NCBI GenBank assembly: GCA_944332025.1
Contig: CALVJB010000003.1
Coordinates: forward strand, 1-63,691
Reading direction: 5' to 3'
DNA: 63,691 nt
Source: an uncultured Bacilli bacterium
GTDB lineage: Bacteria; Bacillota_I; Bacilli_A; RF39; UBA660
A program made the translations under genes and the position numbers. Under the pieces are notes generated by a model, which was given only the letters and a program-made list of their open reading frames with translations, made no database searches and had not been told where the DNA came from. Shown here piece by piece: positions 2,125 through 39,465 of the stretch; the first letter of the stretch is position 1; each line of letters begins with the position of its first letter.

Positions 2125-2783
2125 GCACTTAATCTATATCCATATCCATAAATAGTATTAACGTTTAATAAAGGCATTTTCTTTCTAAGTCTTCTAACTA
2201 AATCATCTACGGCTCTATCACTACCAAAGTAATCATTACCCCATACAGCATCTAGTATATCTTCTCTTGAAAAACTCTTATTAATATTTTCTACTAATAA
2301 TACAAGTAAATCAAATTCTAAAGTTGTAAGTTTAATAGGTTTATCTTTAACACTTACAATGCGTTTATCTAAATCTATAGAATAATCTAAGTAATTAATT
2401 ATTTTAGATTCAGTACTTTGATATACTCTTTTTATAATATTATTAACTCTTAAAACAAGTTCTTTACTAGAATAAGGTTTAGTAATGTAATCATCGCTAC
2501 CTAACTCAAGGCCTAAAATTCGATCCAAATCCTGATCTCTTGCAGATGTAAATATTACAGGTACAAGGGGATATTTTTCACGAATTGCTTTGATTACATC
2601 ATAGCCATTAACATCATCTCCTAACATTATATCTAGAATCCAAACATCAACAGGATTACCTATATAATTAATAGCTTCGCTTCCTTTAGTAAAGGTAACA
2701 ACGTCATATCCGGCTTTTTCTAAATACATTTTAACTACAGTTGCTAAATCAGTTTCATCTTCAACTAAACAAATTTTATACAT
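2121..2783 (-). CDS. OmpR/PhoB-type response regulator
   Basis: 220-aa ORF. Receiver domain (VEDE...ILDIMLGD...KP) and a C-terminal winged-helix ending GYGYRL. Confidence 0.9.
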   Translation of the reverse strand: MYKICLVEDETDLATVVKMYLEKAGYDVVTFTKGSEAINYIGNPVDVWILDIMLGDDVNGYDVIKAIREKYPLVPVIFTSARDQDLDRILGLELGSDDYITKPYSSKELVLRVNNIIKRVYQSTESKIINYLDYSIDLDKRIVSVKDKPIKLTTLEFDLLVLLVENINKSFSREDILDAVWGNDYFGSDRAVDDLVRRLRKKMPLLNVNTIYGYGYRLSA

Positions 2784-3028
2784 AACACCACCTACCCCTA
2801 GTATAACATTAATTCAAGTTTTTGCCTACAAGTAAGTAGGCTTATCACTCTCCTTTCTTTTCTATAATTTATGTAAAAAACTATAGTTGTAAACGTAACT
2901 TAAAATTCTTTACTACATTTACCACTTCCTTTCTTTTACAAGATTATCATATCAATTAAAAGTGTATAAATTATAAAAGAAATGTGGGAAATTATGGGAA
3001 AAGAAAAGAATATCTATGAAAGATACTC

Positions 3029-4879
3029 TTAACTAGCTAAGGCAATTTCAAAAGGTTGTTCTTTAGTGCCTAGACCTCCTGTTATTACTACGTTTGATTT
3101 TAGATTTATTGACGGCCGGACACCGTACGCGTTGGTCGAAGTATTGTTGTACGCGCGACCATTGTCGCCCACGTCACGCACGTAAGACGTACTATATGGT
3201 GTTAAAGTCCAATAAGATGTATTATTACCATATCTATCAAATTGTCCGGACATTAATTCTCCTAAACGGAGTAAGCCAACTTTAGCATTTGTACTTTTAG
3301 CATATCCTGACATATTAGTATCTGTATATTTTGCTAGTTTATATGATGTACCACTTACTACAGTTCCAAGGTACCAAGTTGTATTATCTTCTATCATTGA
3401 ACTATAACTACTATCCACGTAATTTGTTAGATAGTCGCCATTTAAAAATGCTCCTATAGTATTACTACTTGAAAAACTAGTATTACTTCCAAAGGCACTT
3501 GTTATAAAGGTTCCAGAACTCTTTAATGGTTCGGCACTGGTTATCTTCGTTAATCCTTTTGTTTCATGGCTTACTATTCTATATAGATTATTTTCATCAT
3601 TTCCAAATCTTATATATTCCCCACTATACCTGCTTGACAACAATGTTCCTGAAAGATTAGTATCATTATCTCCGTTTAAGCGATAAGGGTTATCTATTGT
3701 TCCATCACCATCTACAATTTTAACGCTAGATTTTAGATTTATTGATGGCCGGACACCGTACGTGTAAGACGAACTATCGCTGTACGCGTAACCAGAGTTG
3801 TTCACGTAACGCACGTTAGACGTACTATATGGTGTTAAGGTCCACCACCAAAGTCCATTATTTAAATAACCATTTGTTTCTCCATTATTACTAGACTGAT
3901 ATTCATACATATTTAAAAGTCCTACTGCATCTGTTACTATTGTACCACTATTGCTAGGTCTTGTTATACTTCCTAAACTAGTGGCATCTAATGTTGCATC
4001 CCATGTAGCATCAGTTACAATGAAATTCTCATAATCTCTTAAATTACCTAAGAAACCATCTACTGTGGTATCATTTAACCATTCTTCCATATAACTTCCT
4101 GCAAAGGCTGTATTACTACTTGCATTATATGGTATAGCACTTATATCCCACTGTGTTACTAATTTTACACTATTATCACTTGGATCTATACTAACAGCTC
4201 TCCATAACTTTCCACTATACCAGATATAATTATTAGGATTTTCTCCTGTTATAAAAGTTTGTTCAGGATCATCAGTATTTATATTATTAGAACTATCTGC
4301 AAGAAGAACTTCAGCTAGTTTTTGTTTTTCTTGGCTAACTTCTACTCTTAACTTACCACTAAATACTTGACCTGAATAATTACCATCTACTTCGTCTGTT
4401 ATCCAAAGATTTAAACTATAAGTATTTGTACCTCCACCTTCTATTGTTCCAGAGTCTAAAATTCTATTAGGGTTAGTTCCTATACTTGTTAAAAGTGTCG
4501 CTCCACTATCGGTTCCATTTTTATTTAAATTATATTTTAAATACTTATCATCTATTCTAGTATCAGTTTCACCTATAGTATTATCATCTAAATAAATTGT
4601 ATAATCTACAGCCTTATTTCCATTATTTCTTAATTCAAAGGTAGATGGTGTAGAACTCATACCTTTACTATCACTTATGCCTATAGCATTATCTAAACTT
4701 ATCCCCTCACTAGTCTCATCTAATACTAACTCCAACTCTCCTACTTTTACTATTTGATCTGTTCCAGATAACTGTGTAGAAAAGTATGCATAAGTTATCG
4801 CTAAAGCTAATACTAATATAATTATTATACTTATTACTATTGTTATTACTTTCTTCTTTTTATTATTAGTTTCTCCCAT
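3029..4879 (-). CDS. secreted surface protein: SipW-type signal peptide, camelysin/TasA-like N-domain, and two tandem lectin-like modules that each end in a hypervariable-looking block
   Basis: 616-aa ORF with the SD aggag upstream. The N-terminus has a K-rich segment, a TM segment, then TYAYFST (compare TasA/CalY xAxFxD). Two roughly 200-aa modules each end in W(W)TLTPYSTS...YGVRPSINLKS. Confidence 0.85.
   Translation of the reverse strand: MGETNNKKKKVITIVISIIIILVLALAITYAYFSTQLSGTDQIVKVGELELVLDETSEGISLDNAIGISDSKGMSSTPSTFELRNNGNKAVDYTIYLDDNTIGETDTRIDDKYLKYNLNKNGTDSGATLLTSIGTNPNRILDSGTIEGGGTNTYSLNLWITDEVDGNYSGQVFSGKLRVEVSQEKQKLAEVLLADSSNNINTDDPEQTFITGENPNNYIWYSGKLWRAVSIDPSDNSVKLVTQWDISAIPYNASSNTAFAGSYMEEWLNDTTVDGFLGNLRDYENFIVTDATWDATLDATSLGSITRPSNSGTIVTDAVGLLNMYEYQSSNNGETNGYLNNGLWWWTLTPYSTSNVRYVNNSGYAYSDSSSYTYGVRPSINLKSSVKIVDGDGTIDNPYRLNGDNDTNLSGTLLSSRYSGEYIRFGNDENNLYRIVSHETKGLTKITSAEPLKSSGTFITSAFGSNTSFSSSNTIGAFLNGDYLTNYVDSSYSSMIEDNTTWYLGTVVSGTSYKLAKYTDTNMSGYAKSTNAKVGLLRLGELMSGQFDRYGNNTSYWTLTPYSTSYVRDVGDNGRAYNNTSTNAYGVRPSINLKSNVVITGGLGTKEQPFEIALAS
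3096..3208 (-). repeat. DGR-type variable-region-like block (C-terminal module)
   Basis: 113-nt GC-rich block. It is near-identical to 3729-3841 except at positions 1-2 of 12 codons. The invariant codons contain no adenine (gtg cgt, ggt, gcg, tcg, ggt gtc cgg ccg). Confidence 0.7.
3729..3841 (-). repeat. DGR-type variable-region-like block (internal module)
   Basis: Partner of 3096-3208. The scaffold nucleotides are the same, while the flanking DNA of the two modules has diverged. Confidence 0.7.
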
Positions 4880-5029
4880 TCTTACTTCACTCCTATATCT
4901 TTTAGTATATACATTTTGCTATTCTTAATACTCTTTATTCTTATAGATAGATTATAAAATAAATATAAGGGTAATGCAAGTAAGTTATTTGTAAATTACA
5001 AGTTATTTACAAATAAGTGAAAAAACTAT

Positions 5030-5138
5030 GAATTTTGTAAATTGACCCTATTTTTTAGAGTCAATTTTTAATTTTCTCTAGACGAATTTATAAAATTGCC
5101 CCTGTTTTTTGAGTGAATTTACAAAATTACCTTTTTGC
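5030..5138 (+). repeat. degenerate roughly 30-bp tandem repeats (AAATTnnCCC...TTTTT units)
   Basis: Four units: gaattttgtaaattgaccctattttttagag / tcaatttttaattttctctagac / gaatttataaaattgcccctgttttttgag / tgaatttacaaaattacctttttgc. Confidence 0.6.
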
Positions 5139-5208
5139 AATGATTTTCTCCATATGTTAGAGTGTAGACATCTGCAGATAAATCATTATTGTTGGAGGTA
5201 TAAATATT

Positions 5209-6085
5209 ATGAAACAAGAAGAAAATAAAGATACTAAAGAAAAGAGTGAAAAGAAATTTATTAGTCTTTTAAGTGATACTACATTTAAACATTTCTTTAA
5301 AATAGAAGATTATAAAGAATTCTTTAATACTATTATTAAACCTATTATAAATATGAATATTAAGGATTTTAAGTTATATGATGCTGAACTTAATAGTGGT
5401 AATGAAAAACGCGATTATCGTTTAGATATATTACTTGTAAGTGATCTAGTTGATCTAGTTATATCAATAGAAATGAACCAGTTTCCTAGTGAAGAGACAA
5501 AATATAAAGATAGATTATATGTATATGCCTTACTTGCTAAAAGTTTAAATAGTGGTGAAGATATTAAGAAGAAGAAAGTCATTCAAATAAACTTTAATAA
5601 AGAAAAGCATCCTTATGTTAGTAAAGGTTCATTTTATTTAATGGATAAGGTAACTAATAGAGAAATAAAAGATTTTGAAATATACGAAGTGTATCTTGAA
5701 AATTACGGGAGGAATAAGATATAATGGAGACAATAAAGAAGAAGCATATCTATCTTTATTTACTGCAACCTCTTATGAAGAGTTAAGAGAAATAGCAGGA
5801 GATGATAAGGAGGCATTGAAGATTGTGGATGAATTAGAAAGACTAGGTCTTGATGATAAGTTTGGATTAGCATATGATAATGAAATAATGCAGAAAAAAA
5901 TGATTAATACCGCTCGTAATTGGGGATATGATGATGGTAAGGCAGATGGACTAGAAGAGGGTGCTAAAGCAAAAGAAATAGAAATTGCAAAAAATTTCCT
6001 TAAAGATGGCATACCTATAGATATAGTATCTAGAAATACTGGTTTAAGTGAAGAAGAGTTAGAAGAACTAAATAAAGAAGCTTAA
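5209..6085 (+). pseudogene. Rpn/YhgA-like PD-(D/E)XK recombination-promoting nuclease / putative transposase, split into two overlapping ORFs (5209-5724 and 5675-6085, +1 frame)
   Basis: The N-terminal part has LLSDTTFKHFF ... RDYRLDILL ... IEMN, which fits a PD-(D/E)XK core. The C-terminal part has the family-typical tail EIAKNFLKDGIPIDIVSRNTGLSEEELEEL. The same split is present in copy 2. Confidence 0.75.
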
Positions 6086-6099
6086 GTGCTTCTTTATTT
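6070..6099. terminator. bidirectional hairpin between the convergent Rpn-like gene and divIB
   Basis: aaataaagaagc-ttaagt-gcttctttattt: a perfect 12-bp stem with A/T runs on both sides. It overlaps both stop codons. Confidence 0.7.
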
Positions 6100-6781
6100 A
6101 TTGCATAATCTGAAAATGATTACCTGAATCTAAATATAAATAACCTTTCTTACCATCTAATTGTGGTAGTACATCATTATAATAATTTAATCTTTCAAAC
6201 TTAGTAATAGTTATATAAACACTATTGCCATCATCCATATATAGTAAAAACCTATCTTCATCGAACTCATTAGGATCATACTTAATCTCACTAATCTTTT
6301 CTCTTATACTCAAATCTACTCTTTTATAATACTTAATAAATCTATTTAATATCTTATTAGGTATCTCATTAATTAACCTAGGTATAGCATAAGGAGTCTC
6401 TTTATCTAAAGTAATCTCATCTTTATTTTCTAATACATACTTACCATTATCTTCTCTTTTACAAAGAATCTCATATTCGTTTACATTAATCTCTATAATA
6501 TGATAAAAACTTCTATTTATATCAACACTCTTAATAAGAGGATTTTCTTTTATATTATTTTTCATAGTTATATTTAATGTCTTATAGAAACTAGGATAAT
6601 CTGTAAGTCCTGCTAATTCTATTATATCATCATCACTAAGTACTTCATTGCCTGTAATTATAATATTTTTGACTTTAGTATCAAGAATAAATAAGCATAC
6701 AAAAACTATTACAGTAATTACTATAATAAATATTAAAAATGGTAATAGTCTTAATTTTTTCTTCTTGATTACTTTAGCCAT
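6098..6781 (-). CDS. divIB: cell division protein DivIB/FtsQ
   Basis: 227-aa ORF with an N-terminal TM anchor followed by a POTRA-like segment (VKNIIITGNEVLSDDDIIELAGL). It lies directly downstream of murG-murB. Confidence 0.8.
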   Translation of the reverse strand: MAKVIKKKKLRLLPFLIFIIVITVIVFVCLFILDTKVKNIIITGNEVLSDDDIIELAGLTDYPSFYKTLNITMKNNIKENPLIKSVDINRSFYHIIEINVNEYEILCKREDNGKYVLENKDEITLDKETPYAIPRLINEIPNKILNRFIKYYKRVDLSIREKISEIKYDPNEFDEDRFLLYMDDGNSVYITITKFERLNYYNDVLPQLDGKKGYLYLDSGNHFQIMQ

Positions 6782-18625: not shown

Positions 18626-18710
18626 TGGTGCGGGTAACAGGAGTTGAACCTGCACGTCTAAGACACTAGATCCTAAGTCTAGCGCGTCTGCCAATTCCGC
18701 CATACCCGCA
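18626..18710 (-). tRNA. tRNA-Leu (anticodon UAG)
   Basis: 85-nt cloverleaf with a 7-bp acceptor stem, anticodon loop cuUAGga, long variable arm, GGTTCAACTCC T-arm and an encoded CCA. Confidence 0.9.
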
Positions 18711-18717
18711 AGATAAA

Positions 18718-18794
18718 TGGTGGACCCTGATGGACTCGAACCATCGACCGTCCGGTTATGAGCCGGATGCTCTAACCAACTGAGCTAAGGGTCC
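18718..18794 (-). tRNA. tRNA with CAU anticodon (elongator Met or lysidine-modified Ile2)
   Basis: 77-nt cloverleaf GGACCCTTAGCTCAGTTGGTTAGAGC...CTCATAA...GGTTCGAGTCC...CCA. It lacks initiator features. Confidence 0.88.
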
Positions 18795-24752: not shown

Positions 24753-24791
24753 TTCTTTTCTATTAATATTTTAGCATAAAGAAAGAAATGT

Positions 24792-25656
24792 TTAAACTTC
24801 TTTCTTTAATTCTTTTAACTCTTCTATACTTAAACCAGTTACTTTTATTATATCTTCTTTAGGTGTACCTATATTAAGGAGATTTTTAGCAATTTCTATT
24901 TCTTTTGCCTTAGCACCTGCTTCCTTACCATCATCATATCCCCAACTACGAGCGGTATTAATCATTTTTTTCTGCATCATCTCGTTATCATAGGCTACTC
25001 CAAAATCATCATTAAGTCCTAGTCTTTCTAATTCATCCACAATCTTCAACGCCTCCTTATCATCTCCTGCTATTTCTCTTAATTCTTCATAAGAGTTAGC
25101 AGTAAATAAAGATAGATATGCTTCTTCTTTATTGTCTCCATTATATCTTATTCCTCCCGTAATTTTCAAGATACACTTCGTATATTTCAAAATCTTTTAT
25201 TTCTCTATTAGTTACCTTATCCATTAAATAAAATGAACCTTTACTAACATAAGGATGCTTTTCTTTATTAAAGTTTATTTGAATGACTTTCTTCTTCTTA
25301 ATATCTTCACCACTATTTAAACTTTTAGCAAGTAAGGCATATACATATAATCTATCTTTATATTTTGTCTCTTCACTAGGAAACTGGTTCATTTCTATTG
25401 ATATAACTAGATCAACTAGATCACTTACAAGTAATATATCTAAACGATAATCACGTTTTTCATTACCACTGTTTAATTCAGCATCATATAACTTAAAATT
25501 CTTAATATCCATATTTATAATAGGTTTAATAATAGTATTAAAAAACTCTTTATAGTCTTCTATTTTAAAGAAATGTTTAAATGAAGTGTCTGATAAAAGA
25601 CTAATAAATTTCTTTTCACTCTTTTCTTTAGTATCTTTATTTTCTTCTTGTTTCAT
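24792..25656 (-). pseudogene. Rpn/YhgA-like nuclease / putative transposase, copy 2, with the same two-ORF split (25141-25656 and 24792-25190)
   Basis: The N-terminal ORF differs from copy 1 at only 3 residues. The C-terminal ORF stays open despite substitutions and a 4-codon indel. Confidence 0.75.
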
Positions 25657-25838
25657 AATATTATACCTCCAACAATAATGATTTATCTGCAGATGCCTAC
25701 ACTCTAACATATGGAGGAAATCATTGCAAAAAGAGAATTTTGTAAATTCACTCTAAAAACAGGGGGCAATTTTATAAATTCGTCTAGAGAAAATTAAAAA
25801 TTGACTCTAAAAAATAGGGTCAATTTACAAAATTCATA
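24792..25838 (-). repeat. inverted-repeat copy 2
   Basis: Reverse complement of 5027-6085, including the upstream repeat array (25726-25835). Confidence 0.9.
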
Positions 25839-25844
25839 TAAATT

Positions 25845-26600
25845 TTATTTTTTTACATAGGCTGTTCCTTTGGATTCAGTATTACCTTTAGCTTTATCAT
25901 CACTTCTAACTAAACCTAGATAGTTCTCTCTTTCTATATTAGCTTTTATTTCCTTTAAAGCAGGTAAAGATAATTTATAAATACTATTAATATCAAAATA
26001 GTGCTTATCATTCTCTTTATCTTTTTCTTGCTTTATTTTATTTATTACTGCTTTATCTTTATCCTTAACATTTTCTAATATATTTTTATTTTCTAAATCT
26101 GCTTCATTTAGTACTTCTTCATTTTCTATCACAAAGTCTCCCTTTTTAATATCTTCAATTTTATACGCAATTGATTTACCATATGCTGTTAAAGGCGTAA
26201 GAAGAGCAAAAGAAGAAAATGTTACTACAGCAGAAACACTAAATAAACTCATATCATTTAAAATTGATAATGGTATGCTACCAAAACCAGTAATAAGTAA
26301 AGGTATCGCCACAGCCATAGCTATCTTTTCTTTTACTATTAATCTTTTTAATAACTTTTTATTTCTAAAATGTTGGTCTCTCATTAATTTTAGTACTTTT
26401 ATTTTATTCTTTTCAATATTAGCATACCTAGGTTTCGAACCATCTGCCATATAAACAACCAAATTATTATAGTCTTCTGTAGTTCTTTTAATCATTATAT
26501 TACTTTCATCGTTTATATACTTATTGCATTTTCCTTTTTCTACTTCAAACCTCATTATATACTTATTACTCTTCTTATCTTCATCTCTAATTACTTTCAT
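25845..26600 (-). CDS. hypothetical membrane protein
   Basis: 251-aa ORF with the SD gaggaag and two central TM helices. I recognise no domain. Confidence 0.55.
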   Translation of the reverse strand: MKVIRDEDKKSNKYIMRFEVEKGKCNKYINDESNIMIKRTTEDYNNLVVYMADGSKPRYANIEKNKIKVLKLMRDQHFRNKKLLKRLIVKEKIAMAVAIPLLITGFGSIPLSILNDMSLFSVSAVVTFSSFALLTPLTAYGKSIAYKIEDIKKGDFVIENEEVLNEADLENKNILENVKDKDKAVINKIKQEKDKENDKHYFDINSIYKLSLPALKEIKANIERENYLGLVRSDDKAKGNTESKGTAYVKK

Positions 26601-36006: not shown

Positions 36007-36261
36007 AAGAAAATCACCAACTTTCCTACCAAACTAATAATATTATAGCATTTAAATGTCAAAAAGAAAGAAAAAACTCTAAAAAAGTCATAAATATTAG
36101 AACATATCTTAATATCTATGACTTTTGTTTATAATATTAAATTATTTTAATATAGGGATAGCCCAAGAACTTTGTTCTAAGTCCATGAACATCTATATTA
36201 TATATTTAGGACAAAGCCCTGGGAATTAAACTTGTTTCCATTCAAAACTTCCTCTATCTTA

Positions 36262-37748
36262 TAACCGGACAGTTTTTGAAATGATATAAAAATGGCCTAG
36301 AGATTATCTAAGTCATTTTGTCTATTAAAATTGAAATAAACAACCTTTTTTGATATTCTTAATATATCCAATAAAAGAATAGAGGTTGTTTATGAATAAA
36401 GTATATAATACTAGGGGAAGAAATCGCAGGTGAAATGAAAGATTTTTTATTAAAAAGTAATCCTAATATCAGAAAAACAAGGGCTTAAAATTATTCCTTT
36501 TATATCTTTAGGTATGATTTTATCTGAATCTTCTGTTGCAAGTGGCATTGCCAAAACTCTTAAAGATGAGTTCTCTTTAGTTCAACATGAATCTGTTATT
36601 AGAAGAATTAAAAGATTATTTAAAAATAAATTATTTGACCCTTATAAATTCTATGATGATGTTATTAGATATGTCATTTCTAACTATAAGCCTAAACACG
36701 ATGATAAAAGAATTCATATAGTCTTTGATCACATGTTTTCTCATAATAATTATACTGTTTTTATGATTACTATGAGAGTTGGTAAACAAGGTATTCCTTT
36801 ATGGTTTAGATGTTTTAAAGATAATGATGACTCTGATGCTTTTGCCGAAGAACTTCTTAAAGAAGGTATTTCTTATGTTTCTTCTTTATTTGATTCTTCT
36901 TATAAACTAATATTTCTTGCTGATAGATGGTTTAATTCTACTTCTTTAATGCAACATATTGACTCTTTAGGTCATACTTATTGTATTAGATTAAAAAGAA
37001 ATATTAAAGTATTTGTCTATGATAAAAAAGAAGGACATAAAGTTTGGAAATTTTTAGATGAAATAGAACCTTACAAATATCACTCTAAATCTTTTAATGA
37101 TATCCTACTTACTGATAACTCTTATAAAACTAATATTGTTATAAGTAAAACGGATGGTGTTAGTGAACCCTGGATTATTGTTACTAATGGTTCTACTAAA
37201 AGAGCCATTAAAGATTATGGTTATCGTTTTGGTGCTATTGAATCAGTATTTAAAAATCAAAAATCTAATGGCTTTTATATTGAATCTGTTGTTAAAGCAG
37301 ACTTAGATTATTTTACTTCTATGTATACTCTTGTTTGTTTTTCTACTCTTTATTTAACTATATTAGGGGCAGACTATTCTAAAAATAATAGTTGTTATAA
37401 AACTGTTAAAATTACTACTCATAAATATTTTATAGAAAATGGTATAAGAGTAAAGAAAAGAGTAATGTCTTTATTTAATACAGGACTTACTCTATTTCAT
37501 CTAGCTTTTAATTCCTCGAAATACATTAGGCTCCCCTTTTCCTTTACTCTCTATGATATTTAAAAAACTTAAATAACCAAAGTTCTTTTTGTCGTGGTTT
37601 AATTTATACTAAAAAGTGTAACTTATGATACCAAAAGTTACACTTTTTCTATTTTTATCATCATTGTTACCAACTCATACACTATTGGTCGTACTTTTAT
37701 ATCTATTTTCCCTTTATTTTTCAACACTTTTACTAAAACTGTCCGTTA
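36262..37748 (+). mobile_element. IS4-family-like insertion sequence
   Basis: Terminal inverted repeats taaccggacagtttt (left) and aaaactgtccgtta (right). One DDE transposase gene. I could find no clear target duplication. Confidence 0.7.
36514..37563 (+). CDS. IS4-family DDE transposase (N-terminus frameshifted)
   Basis: 349-aa ORF. D (VFDHMF), D (LADRWF) and a YGYRFGAIESVFKNQK motif close to the YREK signature. A likely original start at 36434 (MKDFLLKSNPNIRKT) lies in another frame, across the run gaaaaaca. Confidence 0.75.
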   Translation: MILSESSVASGIAKTLKDEFSLVQHESVIRRIKRLFKNKLFDPYKFYDDVIRYVISNYKPKHDDKRIHIVFDHMFSHNNYTVFMITMRVGKQGIPLWFRCFKDNDDSDAFAEELLKEGISYVSSLFDSSYKLIFLADRWFNSTSLMQHIDSLGHTYCIRLKRNIKVFVYDKKEGHKVWKFLDEIEPYKYHSKSFNDILLTDNSYKTNIVISKTDGVSEPWIIVTNGSTKRAIKDYGYRFGAIESVFKNQKSNGFYIESVVKADLDYFTSMYTLVCFSTLYLTILGADYSKNNSCYKTVKITTHKYFIENGIRVKKRVMSLFNTGLTLFHLAFNSSKYIRLPFSFTLYDI

Positions 37749-37749
37749 C

Positions 37750-39465
37750 TCAGGAAATTGTATATGGACTACTAGCAGTCCCATCTCCAGACGTAAACCC
37801 GTTTTCAGTGGTCACATTGATAACTGGACGCACGGCGCCGTCGCTAGCTACACCGACGCCATCGAGGTAATCACCCTCATTCCAGACATAAGCAGTACCA
37901 CCATCGAAAAAGGCCGGCGTCATACTCCAATAAGCTAACATAGAGCCATCACTTACTATATTTAAATAACTGTTACTTACTACCATCAAATTTTCTCCTG
38001 CTAATACTAACTCATCTACTGTTATCAATCCTGCTTTTAATCTATAACTTCCTCCATAACTTTCACTTGTACTTGGACATTTCAATGTTGGATTATTTGG
38101 TTTAGCATAACTTGCTAACGCTTGTCCTAATCTATCGAAGCTTGCAAAGATATTTATTCCATCCACACCACTAAATCCATATTCACTTGCCGGTTTATAT
38201 CCACTACTATCACTACAGAACCTGCCTTCTATTATCTTACTATCATATATGGTGTTTCCTAAAGCATTTTTATACCATGTATCTACTTCTTTTTTAATAA
38301 ATGAATCTGTTCCATTATCATAAGTATATCCTGCATATTTTGGATCATTATACTCTAAATTATATGGACTTATTCCTACTGAGTTTGAAGTTGATATATC
38401 CTTATCATCTGGAAACTCTGGATGTGTTACACTTGTCCCATTATATATTAATCTTAAACTTCCATCTCCGTTTACTCTTACTATCTTCCAGTACATTTTA
38501 TCTCCTGCACTAGCAAGTTTTACTCTATTACTTTCACTACAACTACTATTATATTCTTGGCAAGCTTCTAAGCTTTGAAACCAATTACTCCTATAGTTAT
38601 ATACATAATAATCACTTGTATATTCTCCAAATTGAACATTATTATTTGTCACCGCTCCTCGATAATAGTAACTTATACCATCTTCATCTTCACTCGCATA
38701 AACTCCACTTATCGCATATTCTGGATTAGAATCTGACATTCCATCTTCTTCATCATTAGGATCATATTGAACTCCATTACTTGCATAGTTAAACATATTA
38801 GTTTTTTCTTCTTGTAGTTCATTATCTTCTAGTATCTTCTGTGTTGTTAATGGTACATCGCTACCTTTCTCTCCATCTTTACCATTCACATTTATCTGTA
38901 CACTAAACTGTAGATTTCCTCCATCTCCTTGAGGATTATAATCTTCATCTACCCACATTCTTAGTCTATATCTATTACTCTCACTAGAGTTCATACTACT
39001 TGTATATAAACTCATCTCTCCTGATGGTCTTCCTGTATATGTATTTTCACTACTTTCTTCATTATAAGTTTCAGGTGTCATTAACTCTTCTTCACCATCA
39101 TCTGTTAATCTAGTTAGATATAACTTTATATTAGAACCATCTATCTTTCTTTCACTAGTTGTTACATCTTTTGCACTTATCTCATAATTGATATTTACAT
39201 CTCCTACTATATTACTACTTACTGTAAAATCAAAATACTCTCCATCTGTTAGTCTTTTCTTACCAGTTGCATCTGTTGTTGGTAATGCTCCATTTAAACT
39301 AATAGTATTACTACTTTCAGTATAAGTCATAGTAATAGAACCAGTTGTTATAGTATTTGCTCTTTGTCCTTCTCCCATAAATCTAAACGCAGCATATGAC
39401 ACTCCAATTATCGCCAATACCATTACTAACACTACTATTATTATAATTTTTTCTCTTTTCTTCAT
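37750..39465 (-). CDS. secreted surface protein, paralogue of 3029-4879: SipW-type signal, camelysin-like N-domain, and one lectin-like module with a GC-rich 3' block
   Basis: 571-aa ORF with the SD aggagg. N-terminal K-rich and TM segments, then SYAAFRF. The C-terminus reads WSMTP...GAVRPVINV...GDGTASSPYTIS. Confidence 0.85.
   Translation of the reverse strand: MKKREKIIIIVVLVMVLAIIGVSYAAFRFMGEGQRANTITTGSITMTYTESSNTISLNGALPTTDATGKKRLTDGEYFDFTVSSNIVGDVNINYEISAKDVTTSERKIDGSNIKLYLTRLTDDGEEELMTPETYNEESSENTYTGRPSGEMSLYTSSMNSSESNRYRLRMWVDEDYNPQGDGGNLQFSVQINVNGKDGEKGSDVPLTTQKILEDNELQEEKTNMFNYASNGVQYDPNDEEDGMSDSNPEYAISGVYASEDEDGISYYYRGAVTNNNVQFGEYTSDYYVYNYRSNWFQSLEACQEYNSSCSESNRVKLASAGDKMYWKIVRVNGDGSLRLIYNGTSVTHPEFPDDKDISTSNSVGISPYNLEYNDPKYAGYTYDNGTDSFIKKEVDTWYKNALGNTIYDSKIIEGRFCSDSSGYKPASEYGFSGVDGINIFASFDRLGQALASYAKPNNPTLKCPSTSESYGGSYRLKAGLITVDELVLAGENLMVVSNSYLNIVSDGSMLAYWSMTPAFFDGGTAYVWNEGDYLDGVGVASDGAVRPVINVTTENGFTSGDGTASSPYTIS
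37825..37923 (-). other. GC-rich, adenine-poor candidate variable region
   Basis: 33 codons dominated by NNC/NNG codons (acg ccg gcc ttc ggc gtc gac ggc gcc gtg cgt) within an otherwise AT-rich gene. It occupies the same structural position as the blocks at 3096 and 3729. Confidence 0.55.

Follow-up and report, generated by a model that had tools for sequence, protein, structure and literature searches.

A 571-aa gene in a 63,691-nt stretch of DNA from an uncultured Bacilli bacterium (GenBank assembly GCA_944332025.1, contig CALVJB010000003.1; hereafter the window, 63.7 kb) ends in a short GC-rich, adenine-poor block, and our analysis supports this block as the variable repeat (VR) of the target gene of a diversity-generating retroelement (DGR), the interpretation first offered by a sequence-only reading of the window. 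Three observations carry this assignment: VR and template repeat (TR) differ specifically at adenines, 16 codons in the block are hypervariable, and the genes for the accessory protein Avd and a reverse transcriptase (RT) are present at the same locus in relatives. The window locus itself is a DGR target and relic and not a complete DGR, and it lacks TR, avd and RT. We assign a probability of about 0.8 to the reading that the gene is a DGR target whose element was broken in cis, with the VR most probably a frozen allele, barring another cassette elsewhere in the genome that supplies a compatible TR. Coordinates of all features are collected in Table 1, and loci from other genomes are given by L numbers.

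Intact relatives of the target gene reveal the element that the window lacks. In these relatives a 96-nt VR-like repeat, the TR, lies ~110 nt 3′ of the target stop codon, between the stop codon and a 111-aa open reading frame (ORF). At L006, where the target homolog P0055 is 73% identical to the window protein, the target gene is followed by the 111-aa ORF, a 119-aa protein with a weak match to bAvd (PF22296) and a 367-aa RVT_1 protein, and the same cassette is present at L263 (homolog P0005, 84% identical) as a 112-aa ORF, a 119-aa protein and an RVT_1 protein. A generic TR pattern, AAYGCNAAYGTNTGGAAYGAGAAYGA, retrieved 11 TR loci among GTDB representative genomes, all in Candidatus Onthousia excrementipullorum and in metagenome-assembled genomes (MAGs) of uncultured Bacilli or ‘Tenericutes’, and the ORF111–Avd–RT cassette stands beside the TR at most of these loci among the stretches fetched far enough. 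All TRs begin CGCCGGC and finish CG(T/G)CCAG, and in every pair examined VR and TR part company past the shared end ...CGTCCAG, the VR continuing with TTATCAATG and the TR with ATTCCTACTAAGGCTAG. Across eight cognate VR/TR pairs of equal length, 136 substitutions fall at TR adenines and 4 at other bases, and at L006 all 22 of the 22 differences are at TR adenines. The separate template predicted by the sequence-only reading is accordingly found in relatives, adjoining Avd and RT and differing from its VR in an adenine-specific manner.

The cassette proteins resemble known DGR components. The RT translation contains the motifs IGNVTSQ and YMDD, and (I/L/V)GxxxSQ is a signature of DGR RTs; its top sequence match in the Protein Data Bank (PDB) is a 328-aa chain named ‘Reverse transcriptase’ in entry 8ub7, which we take to be the DGR RT of Bordetella phage. 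For the Avd candidate, the match to NCBIfam NF033474 (DivGenRetAVD) has E = 3.5e-6 and 27 bits, below the cut-off of 80, and no PDB sequence match was obtained. The 111–112-aa ORF (L006:12118-12453, L263:2651-2989) is conserved between TR and avd in every intact cassette of the clade, matches no Pfam or NCBIfam model, and is a candidate for a new accessory gene of DGRs. Two further arrangements were seen among the relatives. At L012:3067-6084 the DGR RT gene is split by a ~1.9-kb insert with weak RT similarity of its own, probably a group II intron, and at L014 and L019 the neighboring TR and VR are one codon apart in length (93 versus 96 nt) and so are not simple cognates, a mismatch that could come from a TR indel or from a decaying element.

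Measured against these templates, the window VR shows the adenine-specific pattern. Relative to the closest TR, that of L016 (near-identical to the TR of L263), the VR carries 22 substitutions at TR adenines and 3 elsewhere, and the 22 replaced adenines became G in 15 cases, T in 4 and C in 3. Two of the three non-adenine mismatches (AAT versus GGC at codon 543 and GTC versus GTG at codon 545) vanish when the VR is compared with the TR variants of L010 and L018, which end AAC-GCC-GTG, and the third (G versus T at codon 519) is common to L004 and L263. The block delimited by the sequence-only reading at 37825-37923 fits the TR-homologous VR almost exactly, with one arithmetic slip: the 39-aa peptide quoted for its 99 nt requires 117 nt. 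That reading also counted the codons gcc (518 and 544), ttc (520), gtc (527) and ctc (534) as AAC-derived, and here it was mistaken, as these codons belong to an invariant scaffold that is unchanged in the relatives’ TRs. By position, and by analogy with the Bordetella phage DGR model, the GC-rich sequence GCCGTGCGTCCAG at the 3′ boundary of VR/TR homology would correspond to the initiation of mutagenic homing (IMH) site.

Hypervariability in the target family is restricted to this block, as the sequence-only reading had set out beforehand as a test. We aligned the best 120 of more than 4000 homologs (counted as clusters at 90% identity; aligned sequences 69–99% identical) and found 16 codons within the block (519, 521, 522, 524, 526, 529, 531, 533, 535–538 and 540–543) that each accept 12–15 residue types with an entropy of 3.0–3.45 bits, in a protein whose remainder averages 0.1–1.5 bits per 20-residue block. 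Near-invariant residues F520, A525, V527, W528, L534 and V539 stand between the variable codons, and the invariant motifs YWSMTP and VRPVINV flank the block on either side. The block is less conserved than the rest of the gene. The residues at the 16 variable positions are drawn almost entirely (1892/1910, 99.1%) from the 15 amino acids that an AAY codon can reach by changing adenines only, and K, E, Q, M and W, which such a codon cannot reach any more than it can a stop, together make up 0.9% of residues there versus 17.4% in the rest of the protein. Among ten distinct VR DNAs, codon positions 1, 2 and 3 are variable at 18, 19 and 11 of 31 codons, respectively.

The same adenine replacement largely accounts for the unusual base composition that first drew attention to the block. 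The window as a whole is AT-rich (27% GC), and 37825-37923 reaches 57.6% GC where 99-nt segments average 27.4% (sd 5.6; z = 5.4), with only 0.014% of all such segments in the window as GC-rich; adenine on the coding (minus) strand is 15% versus a mean of 38% (0.025% tail). The compositional island described by the sequence-only reading is thus real. GC content at third codon positions is 0.52 in the block and 0.05–0.30 in the remainder of the 571-aa gene; up to codon 500 this value is accompanied by an adenine fraction of 0.33–0.48, and over the final 70 codons it rises to 0.35–0.55 as adenine falls to 0.17–0.23. Segments of at least 50% GC form only four stretches in the window, this block among them; two others lie in a 616-aa gene and one is a tRNA-Leu/tRNA-Met pair. 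The closest TR has 40.6% GC and 35 adenines and the window VR has 59.4% GC and 13 adenines, so the GC-rich, adenine-poor composition arises mostly from adenine replacement on a scaffold already GC-richer than the genome, and a larger GC-rich foreign segment is not needed to explain it. The 81-aa ORF on the opposite strand, which the sequence-only reading had ascribed to high GC content and called spurious, is present in the mechanical ORF list, begins in the end of an insertion sequence (IS) and reaches into the VR; we agree that it is spurious because it lies across the target gene's conserved coding frame and straddles the IS/gene junction.

An account without a retroelement would make the island a horizontally acquired or recombined GC-rich segment, or the product of ordinary diversifying selection with gene conversion between paralogs. 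The gene is indeed mosaic, and a breakpoint may lie within the VR or close to it. Compared with L004, its first 450 nt and last 90 nt diverge and the middle is 100% identical, and the 66 nt 3′ of the VR (37758-37823) group with other relatives than does the gene body: they are 86–100% identical to relatives whose upstream gene part is 78–84% identical, including 100% identity to L006 and L009 with genes otherwise ~80% identical, and against L004 and L263 their identity is only 80–82%, compared with 98% for the gene bodies. Against this account, the GC-rich stretch is confined to the module and is not part of a larger foreign block, its variable codons are interleaved with invariant ones, a cassette remnant is present in the window itself, and the relatives hold adenine-biased TR copies with RT and Avd adjoining. 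Horizontal GC-rich transfer and plain diversifying selection are contradicted by the adenine-specific VR/TR differences and the AAY-limited residues, and we consider such an account extremely improbable.

The window retains a trace of the cassette and the mobile element that took its place. An IS of ~1.5 kb abuts or overlaps the target stop codon, and on its far side lie 127 nt of non-coding sequence that are 93.7% identical to L263:2425-2551, 95% to L016, 91% to L010 and 87% to L006. In intact relatives the counterpart of this sequence lies 62–188 nt 3′ of the TR, and the 112-aa ORF follows after a further ~100 nt; a DGR cassette therefore once stood 3′ of the window target gene. The IS now occupies the place of ~270 nt, from the stop codon through the TR to 61 nt past it, and the remnant borders directly on sequence 5′ of an unrelated 88-aa gene and secDF, all three cassette genes having been deleted. 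Searches of the window agree with this loss. An adenine-tolerant ungapped scan found no TR copy beyond the three GC-rich protein-coding blocks themselves, a ‘base-or-A’ IUPAC pattern derived from the window VR with scaffold codons left plain matched only the VR itself, and the RT, Avd and ORF111 of relatives gave no tblastn match in the window (nothing better than E = 1 for the RT). The cognate template that the sequence-only reading proposed to look for is thus missing from the window itself and represented by the TRs of relatives.

The IS recurs among relatives. Its terminal inverted repeats and a transposase ORF of the DDE_Tnp_1 family (IS4-like) are present, and tblastn of a 389-aa transposase homolog aligns residues 27–389 only, at 36472-37560, so the N-terminus of the window copy (~26 residues) is disrupted and the gene may be a pseudogene; intact 389-aa copies exist in L001 and L262. 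L262 (99% protein identity) and L001 and L008 (71%) carry this IS at the equivalent site. At L262:1888-3712 the first IS copy is followed by a second, 93% identical. Another type of element is found at this site in L004 and L005, whose target protein is 92% identical to the window protein and which represent the closest full-length relative: three tandem tyrosine-recombinase genes of the recombinase-in-trio type lie directly 3′ of the target gene (L004:3474-6590, L005:2210-5326). The 3′ end of the target gene looks like a mobile-element hotspot.

By homology to known DGRs, diversification at an intact locus would proceed by transcription of the TR and its reverse transcription with random bases opposite adenines, after which the cDNA would take the place of the VR. 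Such retrohoming would re-randomize ~16 AAY-templated codons in the DUF6273-like module while F520, A525, V527, W528, L534 and V539 stay fixed. In the window, the IS has taken over the site of the TR with its flanks, no accessory ORF, avd or RT is left, and the last VR allele has stayed behind. Present inactivity of the element is suggested by comparisons between strains. L262, from another sample (ERZ28614358), is identical to the window over 2 kb including the VR, with ~5% difference in the IS and more in the gene's 5′ end, and between L001 and L008 a single base differs across 11 kb, outside the VR. The VRs of the window, L004 and L263 agree throughout their 5′ halves and differ in their 3′ halves, mostly at template-adenine positions. 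Differences of this kind are what 3′-biased retrohoming would give, and the mosaic 3′ flank makes recombination an alternative source of them.

Several points weigh against this interpretation. The VR comparison relies on the TRs of relatives and leaves the three non-adenine mismatches, no TR with the exact scaffold of the window VR was found (0 matches in genome_contigs, viral_contigs and metagenome_contigs), no stable hairpin occurs in the 80 nt 3′ of the VR (z = −0.4), and the Avd and RT matches fall short of curated family cut-offs. The evidence for stasis comes from few, nearly identical strains, and the VR of L004, which lacks a nearby cassette, departs from the window VR at 9 positions in the 3′ half (11 with two flanking codons). 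Dispersed arrangements do occur: MAG BRZ_GV__bin40 (L017 and L018) has two target–TR pairs and a single cassette. A trans-acting cassette may lie in the rest of the genome, the analysis having covered the 63.7-kb window.

These points bear most directly on the alternative in which the VR is still diversified in trans by a cassette elsewhere in the genome whose TR has the matching ends CGCCGGCC ... GCCGTGCGTCCAG. Such a cassette would fit the preservation of VR and TR ends throughout the family, the two target–TR pairs with only one ORF111–Avd–RT cassette in BRZ_GV__bin40, and the VRs of L004 and L005, which differ from those of the window and L263 at template adenines on contigs without a cassette. 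The 616-aa gene, whose two hypervariable VR-type blocks lack a TR within 10 kb in every context seen, indicates that remote targeting seems to occur in the clade. Set against this are the absence of TR, RT and Avd from the whole window, the lack of any TR compatible with the window VR in the three public collections, the identity of the VR in the independent IS-bearing L262 and between L001 and L008, the identical VR 5′ half in the window, L004 and L263, and the mosaic 3′ flank through which recombination could yield the VR differences. We therefore consider continued diversification in trans unlikely, and a frozen orphan VR, left behind by the loss of its cassette, the probable state of the window locus. 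As a separate observation, in BRZ_GV__bin40 only the L018 pair has the cassette next to it, and the TR of L017 (L017:7521-8000) is followed directly by other genes.

The 571-aa target protein consists of an N-terminal hydrophobic helix, a beta domain and a C-terminal DUF6273-like module that bears the VR. An AlphaFold2 model places the helix at residues 3–30 (mean predicted local distance difference test score, pLDDT, ~45), consistent with a signal anchor, and we infer a surface, ligand-binding role for the protein. Sequence searches returned more than 4000 homologous clusters, none named or with a Pfam domain, and the protein itself has no Pfam match at E ≤ 0.01 and lies below the gathering score of PF19789 (DUF6273); only 1 of 83 homologs gives even a weak match to that family (E = 0.005). 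The 616-aa protein matches PF19789 with 47.7 bits (cut-off 23.5). Profile comparison with hhalign links the two proteins at both ends: their N-terminal beta domains are homologous (95%), and the VR module of the 571-aa protein is homologous to the C-terminal half of the first DUF6273 module of the 616-aa protein (95.3%, E = 2e-8, over 96 columns that include the VR). The paralogy of the two genes claimed in the sequence-only reading holds in these two domains, with the qualification that they are only distant paralogs (BLASTP E = 1e-4, in the C-terminal module). AlphaFold2 models of the full protein and of its C-terminal 317 residues had mean pLDDT of 45.5 and 45.0, too poor for a fold search and probably a consequence of the shallow alignment (effective number of sequences ~1.8), and a PDB sequence search with the target-family profile gave no match.

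The 616-aa gene carries two VR-like blocks of its own that are 77% identical to each other (3052-3211 versus 3685-3844), with nearly all differences at codon positions 1 and 2, and in 80 homologs each of the two is hypervariable at positions of the AAY type. No TR or RT for this gene lies within 10 kb in the window, in the syntenic contig L020 or in the other context given by L264–L267. A plain-scaffold pattern for its TR had no match in viral contigs, the motif GGTGTCCGGCC was absent from all relevant loci, and with a fully degenerate base-or-A pattern all matches that were read back were poly(A) tracts (two scans, at least 120 stretches each). The suggestion in the sequence-only reading that the 571-aa gene block needs a template distinct from that of the blocks at 3096 and 3729 is borne out, as the TR family found in relatives differs from whatever serves those two blocks. 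A two-component-system locus follows the 616-aa gene in the window (2686-3007) and lies directly 3′ of the TR in L017, and this shared neighbor indicates that the two target families occupy the same chromosomal slot in different genomes. Elsewhere in the window, two inverted repeats of ~1.1 kb (5011-6114 and 24763-25854; 743-nt core 96% complementary) lie 19 kb apart. Each arm holds a gene split into two ORFs (171 + 136 aa and 189 + 132 aa), the relative that is intact in L020 (292 aa) weakly matches HTH_Rpn_C, and recombination between the arms could invert the intervening segment.

Table 1. Features of the window, in window coordinates.
Feature	Position	Strand	Remarks
DGR target gene, 571 aa	37750..39465	-	From the ORF list
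VR, 96 nt, CGCCGGCC...CGTCCAG	37824..37919	-	Codons 516-548; length and ends match the TRs of relatives
GC-rich 3′ end of VR, GCCGTGCGTCCAG	37824..37836	-	VR/TR homology stops here; IMH-like by position
Last 23 codons of target gene, 3′ of VR	37753..37823	-	66 nt (37758-37823) unusually conserved at DNA level, lineage mosaic
IS element, ~1.5 kb	36258..37752		Bounds within a few nt; abuts or overlaps target stop codon
IS terminal inverted repeats, 16 nt	36266-36281 and 37730-37745		88% complementary
IS transposase ORF	36514..37563	+	DDE_Tnp_1 (PF01609), E = 4.7e-5, 23.7 bits versus cut-off 23
Non-coding remnant of DGR cassette, 127 nt	36131..36257	-	Far side of IS
Antisense ORF, 81 aa	37625..37870	+	Mechanical ORF list; spurious
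616-aa gene, two DUF6273 modules, two VR-like blocks	3029..4879	-	Blocks 3052-3211 and 3685-3844
GC island	3084-3216		In 616-aa gene; 99-nt segments ≥50% GC
GC island	3747-3846		In 616-aa gene; 99-nt segments ≥50% GC
GC island	18626-18794		tRNA-Leu/tRNA-Met pair; 99-nt segments ≥50% GC

These data explain an odd compositional island by a known mechanism and do not call for a new kind of biology. They identify more than 4000 clusters, without annotation or Pfam assignment, as a large family of cellular DGR targets in Ca. Onthousia-like gut Bacilli, and they provide a clean natural example of DGR death: an IS in place of the TR, no avd or RT, and the final VR allele still there. For annotation, short GC-rich, adenine-poor 3′ ends of genes in AT-rich genomes can signal DGR targets even when no retroelement is on the contig. 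Should a remote cassette still rewrite the orphan VR and both VRs of the 616-aa gene in trans, which we think doubtful, the result would be a dispersed multi-target hypermutation network in low-GC uncultured Bacilli, and mobile elements (the IS here and the recombinase trio in L004) would repeatedly land 3′ of the target, removing the local TR and switching targets off.

The prototype DGR is the mtd–avd–TR–brt element of Bordetella phage BPP-1, and DGRs have been surveyed by Wu et al. in 2018 and Roux et al. in 2021. The window target gene resembles that element in having its VR at the 3′ end of the ORF with a GC-rich 3′ homology boundary, and its relatives have in common with it an equal-length TR with AAY at variable positions, adenine-specific VR/TR differences, and Avd and RT adjoining. 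Unlike the BPP-1 element, the relatives’ cassettes run target–TR–ORF111–avd–RT, an order in which the TR precedes avd and one conserved ORF is additional, and they sit in the chromosomes of uncultured Bacilli of low GC content (Ca. Onthousia and its relatives); the window locus differs further in that no hairpin was detected 3′ of its VR, and what it retains is the VR and the 127-nt non-coding remnant only, without TR, avd or RT. This is a known kind of system in which the target family and the bacterial clade are unannotated. In gut phages, DGRs are known to target DUF6273 modules whose VR is C-terminal, and the module is termed C-type-lectin-like in the Tentaclins (PMC10743442) and in Faecalibacterium prophage targets (PMC11792537). 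Like those targets, the window VR lies at the C-terminal end of a DUF6273-type module with the motif YW.(L/M)TP ... VRP.(I/L)N(L/V). Unlike them, the window protein is cellular, putatively membrane-anchored at its N-terminus, and not a phage tail protein, and it misses the Pfam DUF6273 threshold; a C-type-lectin-like fold is proposed for it by analogy. Orphan or remote DGR targets, VRs without adjacent TR or RT, have been reported in DGR surveys. The window VR is like these in bearing all the sequence hallmarks of a VR with no TR or RT within tens of kilobases, and unlike other orphan targets in that the cause is visible in the window: the IS at the TR site and the flanking cassette remnant indicate secondary loss of the element and not a primary dispersed layout.

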